From: Escherichia coli
GTDB taxonomy: Bacteria; Pseudomonadota; Gammaproteobacteria; Enterobacterales; Enterobacteriaceae
DNA: 64,000 nt
NCBI RefSeq assembly: GCF_003018255.1
Contig: NZ_CP027440.1
Reading direction: 5' to 3' (one strand)
The translations under genes and the position numbers were made by a program. This document shows, piece by piece, positions 25,725 through 27,293 of this stretch. Position 1 is the stretch's first letter. Each line of letters opens with the position of its first letter. The notes beneath the pieces were generated by a model. The model was not told the origin of the DNA and did not search any database. It saw only the letters and a list, made by a program, of their open reading frames with translations.

Positions 25725-27056
25725 GTGGTAAAGGAACGTAAAACCGAGCTGGTCGAGGGATTCCGCCATTCGGTTCCCTATATCAATACCCACCGGGGAA
25801 AAACATTTGTCATCATGCTCGGCGGTGAAGCCATTGAGCATGAGAATTTCTCCAGTATCGTTAATGATATCGGGTTGTTGCACAGCCTCGGCATCCGTCT
25901 GGTGGTGGTCTATGGCGCACGTCCGCAGATCGACGCAAATCTGGCTGCGCATCACCACGAACCGCTGTATCACAAGAATATACGTGTGACCGACGCCAAA
26001 ACACTGGAACTGGTGAAGCAGGCTGCGGGAACATTGCAACTGGATATTACTGCTCGCCTGTCGATGAGTCTCAATAACACGCCGCTACAGGGCGCGCATA
26101 TCAACGTCGTCAGTGGCAATTTTATTATCGCCCAGCCGCTGGGCGTCGATGACGGCGTGGATTACTGCCATAGCGGGCGTATCCGGCGGATTGATGAAGA
26201 CGCGATCCATCGTCAACTGGACAGCGGTGCAATAGTGCTAATGGGGCCGGTCGCTGTTTCAGTCACTGGCGAGAGCTTTAATCTGACCTCGGAAGAGATT
26301 GCCACTCAACTGGCCATCAAACTGAAAGCTGAAAAGATGATTGGTTTTTGCTCTTCCCAGGGCGTCACTAATGACGACGGTGATATTGTCTCCGAACTTT
26401 TCCCTAACGAAGCGCAAGCACGGGTAGAAGCCCAGGAAGAGAAAGGTGATTACAACTCCGGTACGGTGCGCTTTTTGCGTGGCGCAGTGAAAGCCTGCCG
26501 CAGCGGCGTGCGTCGCTGTCATTTAATCAGTTATCAGGAAGATGGCGCGCTATTGCAAGAGTTGTTCTCACGCGACGGTATCGGTACGCAGATTGTGATG
26601 GAAAGCGCCGAGCAGATTCGTCGCGCAACAATCAACGATATTGGCGGTATTCTGGAGTTGATTCGCCCGCTGGAGCAGCAAGGTATTCTGGTACGCCGTT
26701 CTCGCGAGCAGCTAGAGATGGAAATCGACAAATTCACCATTATTCAGCGCGATAACACGACTATTGCCTGCGCCGCGCTCTATCCGTTCCCGGAAGAGAA
26801 GATTGGGGAAATGGCCTGTGTGGCAGTTCACCCGGATTACCGCAGCTCATCAAGGGGCGAGGTTCTGCTGGAACGCATTGCCGCTCAGGCGAAGCAGAGC
26901 GGCTTAAGCAAATTGTTTGTGCTGACCACGCGCAGTATTCACTGGTTCCAGGAACGTGGATTTACCCCGGTGGATATTGATTTACTCCCCGAGAGCAAAA
27001 AGCAGTTGTACAACTACCAGCGTAAATCCAAAGTGTTGATGGCGGATTTGGGGTAA
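25725..27056 (+). CDS. argA: Amino-acid N-acetyltransferase (N-acetylglutamate synthase)
   Basis: 443 aa from GTG start ([34 protein letters not shown]...). Confidence 0.92.
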
Positions 27057-27293
27057 GTGGTGGAAATCGCCAGATGCGACATGCGCAATGCCTGGAGGCA
27101 TGATAAACACGCTAGCATCGCATCAGGTATTGACGCTCATCGTCGGATGCGGCGTGAACGCCTTATCCGACCTACATCAAATCAAAGGTGTTGATGGCGG
27201 ATTTAGGGTAAGCGACGGAAATCGCCAGATGCGCATATGCGCAATGCCCGGAGGCATGACAGGACGCGCATGCGTCGCATCAGGCAATCACGT
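27057..27293. repeat. REP/BIME-like palindromic repeats plus a near-duplicate of the argA 3' end
   Basis: CGGATGCGGCGTGAACGCCTTATCCGACCTACA is a REP-type palindrome. A ~70-bp unit (GTGTTGATGGCGGATTTGGGGTAAG...GCGCAATGCC.GGAGGCATGA) occurs twice. Confidence 0.6.

Follow-up and report, generated by a model that had tools for sequence, protein, structure and literature searches.

A degenerate, probably BIME-2-type REP cluster with a second argA 3' end at the convergent argA–recD junction of Escherichia coli

We found that the spacer between the convergent genes argA and recD, in a stretch of 64,000 nucleotides of Escherichia coli DNA (the window), is occupied by a genuine direct repeat, in which the 3' end of argA recurs beyond an intact REP palindrome. 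Taken as a whole, the junction is probably a strain-variable, degenerate BIME-2-type REP cluster, i.e. an ordinary REP/BIME polymorphism, whose probable origin is a local tandem duplication inside a BIME array, through slippage or illegitimate unequal exchange, with the end of argA carried along as a passenger.

The open reading frames and the annotation of an identical genome (NZ_AP045067.1) agree in placing argA (25659..27056, + strand) and recD (27294..29120, − strand) on opposite strands, as the original prediction had it, with a spacer of 237 nt between them. The direct repeat consists of copy A (27024-27140) and copy B (27179-27297), with a start-to-start spacing of 155-157 nt. Repeat finding resolved three co-linear ungapped blocks (55, 23 and 34 nt long, with 89%, 96% and 74% identity, respectively), and pairwise alignment of the two copies gave a global identity of about 82% over the 117/119-nt unit. 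The local alignment of 27000-27150 with 27151-27300 reached a score of 129, far above 500 dinucleotide-preserving shuffles of the same two halves (mean 16.8, sd 2.5, maximum 28). The duplication of the argA 3' end, proposed in the original prediction, is thus confirmed; its extent, given there as the last argA codons and about 45 nt past the gene, had to be enlarged to a unit of about 117 nt. This unit comprises the last 33 nt of argA, the whole 81-nt ancestral spacer and the recD stop-codon region, of which a remnant is carried in copy A. Tandem Repeats Finder, run on the window, reported nothing at the argA–recD junction, where the array has two copies only. An assembly artefact can be dismissed, as about 130 complete genomes, independent of one another, have the two-copy sequence. 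The parts of the junction are, from left to right:

27017..27022, + strand: CCAGCG in argA, putative microhomology partner of CCTACG
27024..27140, + strand: copy A of the unit (argA tail, 12-nt linker, y head, z2 REP, linker with recD-stop remnant)
27024..27056, + strand: functional argA tail, last 33 nt, stop codon at 27054-27056 (open reading frame and annotation in NZ_AP045067.1)
27057-27068: 12-nt linker of copy A
27069..27080, + strand: truncated y-REP head GCCAGATGCGAC of copy A, from by-eye alignment with E. whittamii (locus L033) and E. coli alleles
27094..27128, + strand: z2-type REP of copy A, foot GGAG instead of GTAG, naRNA4 model positions 45-77
27129..27141, + strand: linker ATTGACGCTCATC, a recD stop-proximal remnant matching the E. 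whittamii array linker ATTGGCACTCATC
27142..27175, − strand: intact y-type REP GTCGGATGCGGCGTGAACGCCTTATCCGACCTAC, GTAG on the minus strand, CTAC at 27172-27175 on the plus strand
27176..27178: 3-nt junction ATC between REP and pseudo-tail (GGA or GTA in other alleles)
27179..27297, + strand: copy B of the unit, which abuts and overlaps the real recD stop
27179..27211, + strand: argA pseudo-tail, a 33-nt non-coding copy, pseudo-stop at 27209-27211
27212-27223: 12-nt linker of copy B
27224..27234, + strand: truncated y-REP head GCCAGATGCGC of copy B, from comparison of copies and alleles
27250..27285, + strand: z2-type REP of copy B, foot GGAG, matched by the z2 half only of naRNA4
27294..27296, − strand: recD stop codon, TAA on the minus strand (open reading frame and recD annotation)

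The REPs of E. coli are imperfect palindromes of 30-40 nt, with a conserved GTAG/CTAC tetranucleotide at the foot and a mismatch in the stem, and they are sorted into y, z1 and z2 types (PMC3333891). The element at 27142-27175 corresponds to the y type: it is a 14+14-nt palindrome with a CTAC foot and has retained the stem mismatch, GC opposite TT. It is extragenic, lying between the argA and recD stops, and it is multicopy, as the same 34-mer is present elsewhere in E. coli genomes and through the REP part of the query each E. coli genome gains 8-9 further megablast places (median). Within the 64-kb window it is the only canonical REP of the GTCGGATGCGGCGTGAACGCCTTATCCGACCTAC form. The palindrome predicted between the two copies is therefore a canonical y REP, and the wording that the repeat is embedded in REP palindromes can be refined, since each copy is itself composed of a y head and a z2 REP as its inverted partner. 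The z2 REP of copy A is predicted to fold as a separate RNA hairpin. The strict canonical z2 pattern had no match in the window, because the local z2 copies are degenerate. The segment running from the z2 REP of copy A through the linker to the y REP (junction query positions 1-92) has matches of about 82% identity at other places in nearly all E. coli genomes, and a distant-mode search returned at least 40 matching pieces per record in 3,640 records.

At the gathering threshold, an Rfam scan of the whole window had no match at the argA–recD junction. In a sensitive scan the one family found there was naRNA4 (RF02564), whose model joins a y-REP hairpin to a z2-REP hairpin through a 13-nt linker; it aligned full-length (model 1-77) on the minus strand at 27172-27097, with 54.6 bits and E=3.5e-9. 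A further, half-length match of 31.2 bits covers 27253-27307, at the z2 REP of copy B. With 54.6 bits against a gathering score of 59.5, the junction does not belong to naRNA4/CssrE by threshold. The naRNA4 alignment nevertheless establishes the inverse y and z2 pair with short linker of a BIME-2, which upholds the description of the duplication as BIME-like; the array is, however, degenerate and no textbook BIME-2, being devoid of multiple well-conserved tandem y–z2 units. It departs from that type in having one intact y, a second z2 beside an 11-nt y head, copies of 82% identity and an argA fragment within the unit. The repeat flanking the REP is 117 nt long, and does not correspond to the 2-14 bp direct repeats of an element with defined ends that makes target-site duplications; to our knowledge, the IS200/IS605 relatives of RAYTs make none.

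Elsewhere in the window, two tandem OmrA/OmrB sRNA genes (52762-52849 and 52964-53045, − strand) score 96.6 and 86.1 bits, over the Rfam gathering threshold. Homology to K-12 MG1655 begins exactly at the amiC stop (window position 24239), and in positions 1-24239 a type VI secretion cluster (ClpV-like AAA, VgrG, TssM/IcmF, TssA/VasJ, TssF and VasL) replaces mltA and metZ-metW-metV of K-12. The same segment has a lower-GC PTS EIIBC gene, a PRD antiterminator gene and an aminotransferase gene, and it looks like a strain-specific island beside amiC. ARAGORN found no tRNA gene anywhere in the 64-kb window.

The junction was compared with known systems. Shyamala and colleagues are said to have described, in 1990, REP-mediated tandem duplications of the chromosome, through RecA-dependent exchange between distant REPs. 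Our junction resembles these in being a tandem duplication whose joint is occupied by a REP, but they span kilobases between two REPs, whereas here the unit is 155 nt long, with an endpoint in unique coding DNA and microhomology only. It resembles BIME-2 arrays, e.g. REP325, the source of naRNA4/CssrE, in the opposite orientation of y and z2, the 13-nt linker and the full-length naRNA4 alignment, and also in being extragenic, between convergent genes, and of strain-variable copy number (PMC3333891). Unlike these arrays, it has a single intact y, the other two y positions being heads of 11-12 nt, its z2 foot is GGAG and not GTAG, 33-35 nt of its 155-nt repeat unit are argA coding sequence, and its naRNA4 score stays below threshold. 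The capture of a gene 3' end together with the stop-to-REP sequence within an inter-REP segment is known from rayt-capturing BIMEs (Nunvar et al. 2010, PMC2817692); those are four cases in other species that involve the transposase gene itself, whereas here, in E. coli, it is the end of the housekeeping gene argA and, on the other side, a short end of recD.

We surveyed the locus in 5,426 complete E. coli genomes. The window matches strain JNE23-011 at 100%. The two-copy form was found in 130-132 genomes (about 2.4%), according to three locus-spanning or junction-specific queries at a coverage of at least 80%, and it falls into two allele types that are 88% identical to each other (12% apart). 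The alleles of the spacer are:

Window type: 237 nt, with both copies and the y REP, in about 98 genomes
103605 type: 234 nt, window-type architecture, with one and the same sequence in 33 genomes
K-12 type: single-copy spacer of 61 nt, seen more often than any other span in the listed records
B2 type: single-copy spacer of 81 nt, carried by several of the listed records
PapRG-04-4: 143 nt, composed of tail, 12 nt, full y REP, pseudo-tail, 12 nt and short hairpin, one genome
CS18F: 82 nt, an exact chimera of the left 55 nt of copy A and the right 64 nt of copy B, one genome

The comparison with K-12 suggested in the original prediction thus yields a single-copy spacer of 61 nt, in which the MG1655 record annotates no REP feature. 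Both the 61-nt and the 81-nt single-copy spacers align to each of copies A and B. The K-12 spacer (L001:508-568) is a near-perfect hairpin, GTCGGATGCGAC, 15 nt and GTCGCATCCGGC, and appears to be derived from the 81-nt y-head/z2 form (L002:508-588) via a 20-nt internal deletion. Adding an 82-nt repeat, made up of tail, 12 nt and y REP, to the 61-nt form gives the spacer of PapRG-04-4. The crossover point of CS18F, whose two parts are identical to the first 55 nt of copy A and the last 64 nt of copy B, lies within GGAAATCGCCAGATGCG, common to both copies. CS18F is thus an instance of the two-copy form having collapsed by recombination.

All three alleles with a pseudo-tail have the junction at the same position, CCTAC followed by 3 nt and then AAATC, while the 3 nt themselves differ in each (ATC, GGA and GTA). 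The window pseudo-tail has three differences from the true argA tail, all at would-be synonymous positions; that of the 103605 type has lost 1 nt and contains another indel besides, and that of PapRG-04-4 has three substitutions in the same hexamer, other than the three of the window. Between strains, identity is 98.6-99.7% in argA and 95-98% in recD, against 70-89% among spacer alleles, so that the spacer is hypervariable among all alleles, beyond the difference between copy A and copy B. Some derived changes are common to the copies of one allele, namely GCCAGATGCG in both window copies and GCCGGATGCGATATGCGCAATGCCCC in both 103605 copies, which indicates gene conversion, a process by which history is erased.

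As a separate observation, recD is more polymorphic than argA between strains (overall identity to the window of 95.2-97.8% versus 98.6-99.7%), and its differences are mosaic, with 12-16 per 150 nt in some intervals and 0-2 in others, compared to 0-5 per 150 nt in argA.

GTDB species representatives were scanned with a back-translated pattern of the argA C-terminus, which gave 39 loci with one match each. A single-copy spacer of about 80-81 nt, with y head and z2, is found in E. albertii and in Escherichia sp. MOD1-EC7003. The divergent genome SCPM-O-B-8794, labelled E. coli and with flanks 92-93% identical, has a full y REP 12 nt past the argA stop, and Salmonella and Citrobacter have other REPs at the locus and no pseudo-tail. 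The argA–recD spacer of E. whittamii (L033:4916-5187) is a regular BIME-2 array with a period of 93 nt, 2.9 copies and 95% matches, and contains two naRNA4 matches over the gathering threshold (72.7 and 71.8 bits). It shares with the window the locus, the z2–linker–y junction sequence and the recD stop-proximal remnant in the linker. It differs in its three regular 93-nt units of 95% identity, in its full y REPs, one of which stands where the window has the truncated y head of copy A, in its naRNA4 scores over threshold and in having no argA pseudo-tail.

The internal linker–REP junction of E. whittamii, GGCATTGGCACTCATC followed by GTCGGATGCGGCG, is the same as that of the window, GGTATTGACGCTCATC followed by GTCGGATGCGGCG (27127-27154), and is also present in the 103605 allele. 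Considering that this junction is common to the E. whittamii array, the window REP is no later independent insertion. In E. whittamii a piece of the recD stop region is found in every internal linker, so that there, too, a gene end was copied as the array grew. The window REP and its left flank are thus homologous to a BIME-array junction that already held a captured recD end. In E. coli, E. albertii and MOD1-EC7003 recD ends with TAA, and in E. whittamii and SCPM-O-B-8794 it ends with TGA, which reads TCA on the plus strand; the linker remnant of copy A (…GCTCAT) has the TCA form.

The reading that we prefer, and consider probable, is local tandem duplication within a BIME array, of which we infer the order of events and the microhomology mechanism as follows. 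The start would be an array at argA–recD like the one present in E. whittamii today. The right endpoint of the duplication would have been the 3' end of the y REP (…CCTACG, the y REP plus one base) and the left endpoint a site 35 nt inside argA (…CCAGCG, 27017-27022), with CCAGCG and CCTACG serving as microhomology. As the left endpoint lies inside argA, the end of this gene would have been copied as a passenger. The same endpoints in a two-unit array, with subsequent loss of one unit, would give the window architecture; later array contraction, gene conversion and point mutation would have led to the present alleles, and recombination between the two copies to collapse back to one.

Several observations are consistent with this scheme. 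The y REP ends in CCTACG in E. whittamii and SCPM-O-B-8794 as well, and the PapRG-04-4 allele has the structure expected of one tandem duplication between CCAGCG and CCTACG. BIME copy number per locus is known to vary among E. coli strains (PMC3333891), and the 3' ends of rayt genes are captured in inter-REP segments of BIMEs (PMC2817692). Other observations complicate it. No observed single-copy allele leads to the window allele in one step; the path would need, as a minimum, a duplication and an array contraction, or else a two-unit intermediate, which was not observed in E. coli. The microhomology matches at 4 of 6 bases only, and the junction is blurred by the 3 nt past CTAC that differ in all three alleles. 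These alleles may go back to a single origin or to recurrent independent events at one microhomology, as either fits. We rejected unequal crossing-over between two REPs as a mechanism sufficient by itself, since a REP inside argA, upstream of 27024, would be required.

Among the other origins that we weighed, cleavage by the TnpA_REP/RAYT protein (YafM) is attractive because of the behaviour of this enzyme in vitro, although we regard it as unlikely. In that case (slashes marking cleavage points or joints), the iREP would have been cut at CC/TAC and argA at AAC/TAC (27014-27016), and strand transfer would have amplified the BIME and captured the argA end. In vitro, cuts by TnpA_REP fall inside CTAC, within linkers and at C/T sites more than 400 nt from the BIME, and its strand transfer assembles multiple REPs (PMC3333891), with joints that are always C/T (PMC8266576); an AAC/TAC is indeed present in argA, 9 nt upstream of where the pseudo-tail starts, and the captured rayt 3' ends are a precedent (PMC2817692). 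However, a joint between CC/TAC and AAC/TAC predicts CCTACCAGCGTAAATCC, while all three alleles have CTAC plus 3 nt and then AAATC, which is shorter, so that an extra deletion of 3-4 nt is required. The other new junction (…CTCATC/GTCGG…) is C/G on both strands and not C/T, and inspection of both strands at either junction found no C/T signature of a RAYT. Moreover, both z2 copies of the window have GGAG, without the GTAG needed for TnpA_REP binding, and no in vivo mobilisation of REPs has been demonstrated (PMC8266576). The local duplication fares better than a composite event as well, which we hold to be very unlikely, whether as a plain 117-nt spacer duplication followed by insertion of a REP at the joint, or as a horizontally acquired recD-side fragment that was joined illegitimately and left donor and recipient spacers adjacent. 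The divergence of about 18% between the copies, compared to 1-5% between strains in the flanking genes, would be accounted for by such an import, as would the mosaic of recD and the restriction of the window pseudo-tail differences to would-be synonymous positions. Against it, hypervariability extends across all spacer alleles and not just between the copies, and the synonymous pattern is not general, given the indels of the 103605 pseudo-tail and the three different substitutions in PapRG-04-4. These changes amount to free decay, and the pseudo-tail as an imported, once-real gene end was rejected. In addition, the junction left of the REP is common to the E. whittamii BIME array, and insertion of a REP exactly at the duplication joint would be a coincidence. 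Among the 5,426 E. coli genomes and the Escherichia species representatives, no donor lineage with a single-copy allele matching copy B was found; the best single-copy match is the chimera CS18F.

Selection for the duplication was also considered, in that it would provide each convergent gene with a private 3' hairpin, with a central REP between them, thereby insulating transcription or mRNA decay or forming a gyrase/HU site. REPs and BIMEs are reported to make the 3' ends of upstream mRNAs more stable, to help in Rho-dependent attenuation and to be bound by gyrase, Pol I, IHF and HU. A REP that lies no more than about 15 nt from a stop codon reportedly reduces translation, a finding attributed to Liang and colleagues in 2015. 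In favour of selection, the predicted RNA of either strand is more stably folded than shuffles (z = -2.7 and -5.0), and the two-copy allele persists as two old lineages; but strong folding is expected of palindromic REPs whatever their function, and about 97.6% of E. coli, as well as E. albertii and another Escherichia species, do without the two-copy form, which also collapses by recombination, as in CS18F. No promoter-like or intrinsic-terminator-like site was found on either strand in 26800-27500, the hairpins of the junction not qualifying as intrinsic terminators, in which a T run follows a G+C-rich hairpin, and the pseudo-tail decays freely. Selection is thus highly improbable, the least probable of the explanations considered here.

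Under the local duplication that we favour, little would change for either gene. The first REP-like hairpin lies 12-13 nt past the argA stop in one-copy and two-copy alleles alike, and on the recD side a hairpin lies 8 nt from the stop; as these distances are alike in both forms, the immediate 3' context of argA and recD would be unchanged by the duplication. As each gene keeps its own stop-proximal hairpin unchanged, the two-copy variant is probably near-neutral. No open reading frame of at least 30 aa in the list ends at the argA pseudo-stop, and the second argA tail would be a non-coding passenger, of no functional concern as a gene fragment. Any role of the REPs at argA–recD would be the generic one of REPs in 3'-end RNA structure and protein binding.

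A literature search found no publication on REPs together with argA and recD. This cluster is undescribed so far, the kind of polymorphism itself being well known, and it is only mildly notable that BIME growth here copied the ends of both neighbouring genes. For the annotation of such genomes, the extra 155 nt at the junction are REP/BIME-derived non-coding DNA, and their importance beyond annotation is small. For REP specialists, the locus offers a small allele series at one place, in which spacers of 61, 81/82, 143, 234 and 237 nt are joined by a collapsed chimera and, from a sister species, by a regular array. Gene-end footprints of this kind are what is needed to decide whether BIMEs are amplified by slippage or illegitimate recombination or by RAYT catalysis. 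Two novel junctions are involved, one between the recD-stop remnant and the y REP, found also in E. whittamii, and one between the y REP and the argA fragment. They could be the record of a more general process, although we judge this quite unlikely, in which BIME arrays grow via local copying with endpoints in neighbouring genes, possibly through TnpA_REP cleavage at distant sites, and not via transposition of REP units. If the local-copying reading is true, the polymorphic argA–recD locus would be a tractable in vivo assay of REP/BIME amplification and collapse.
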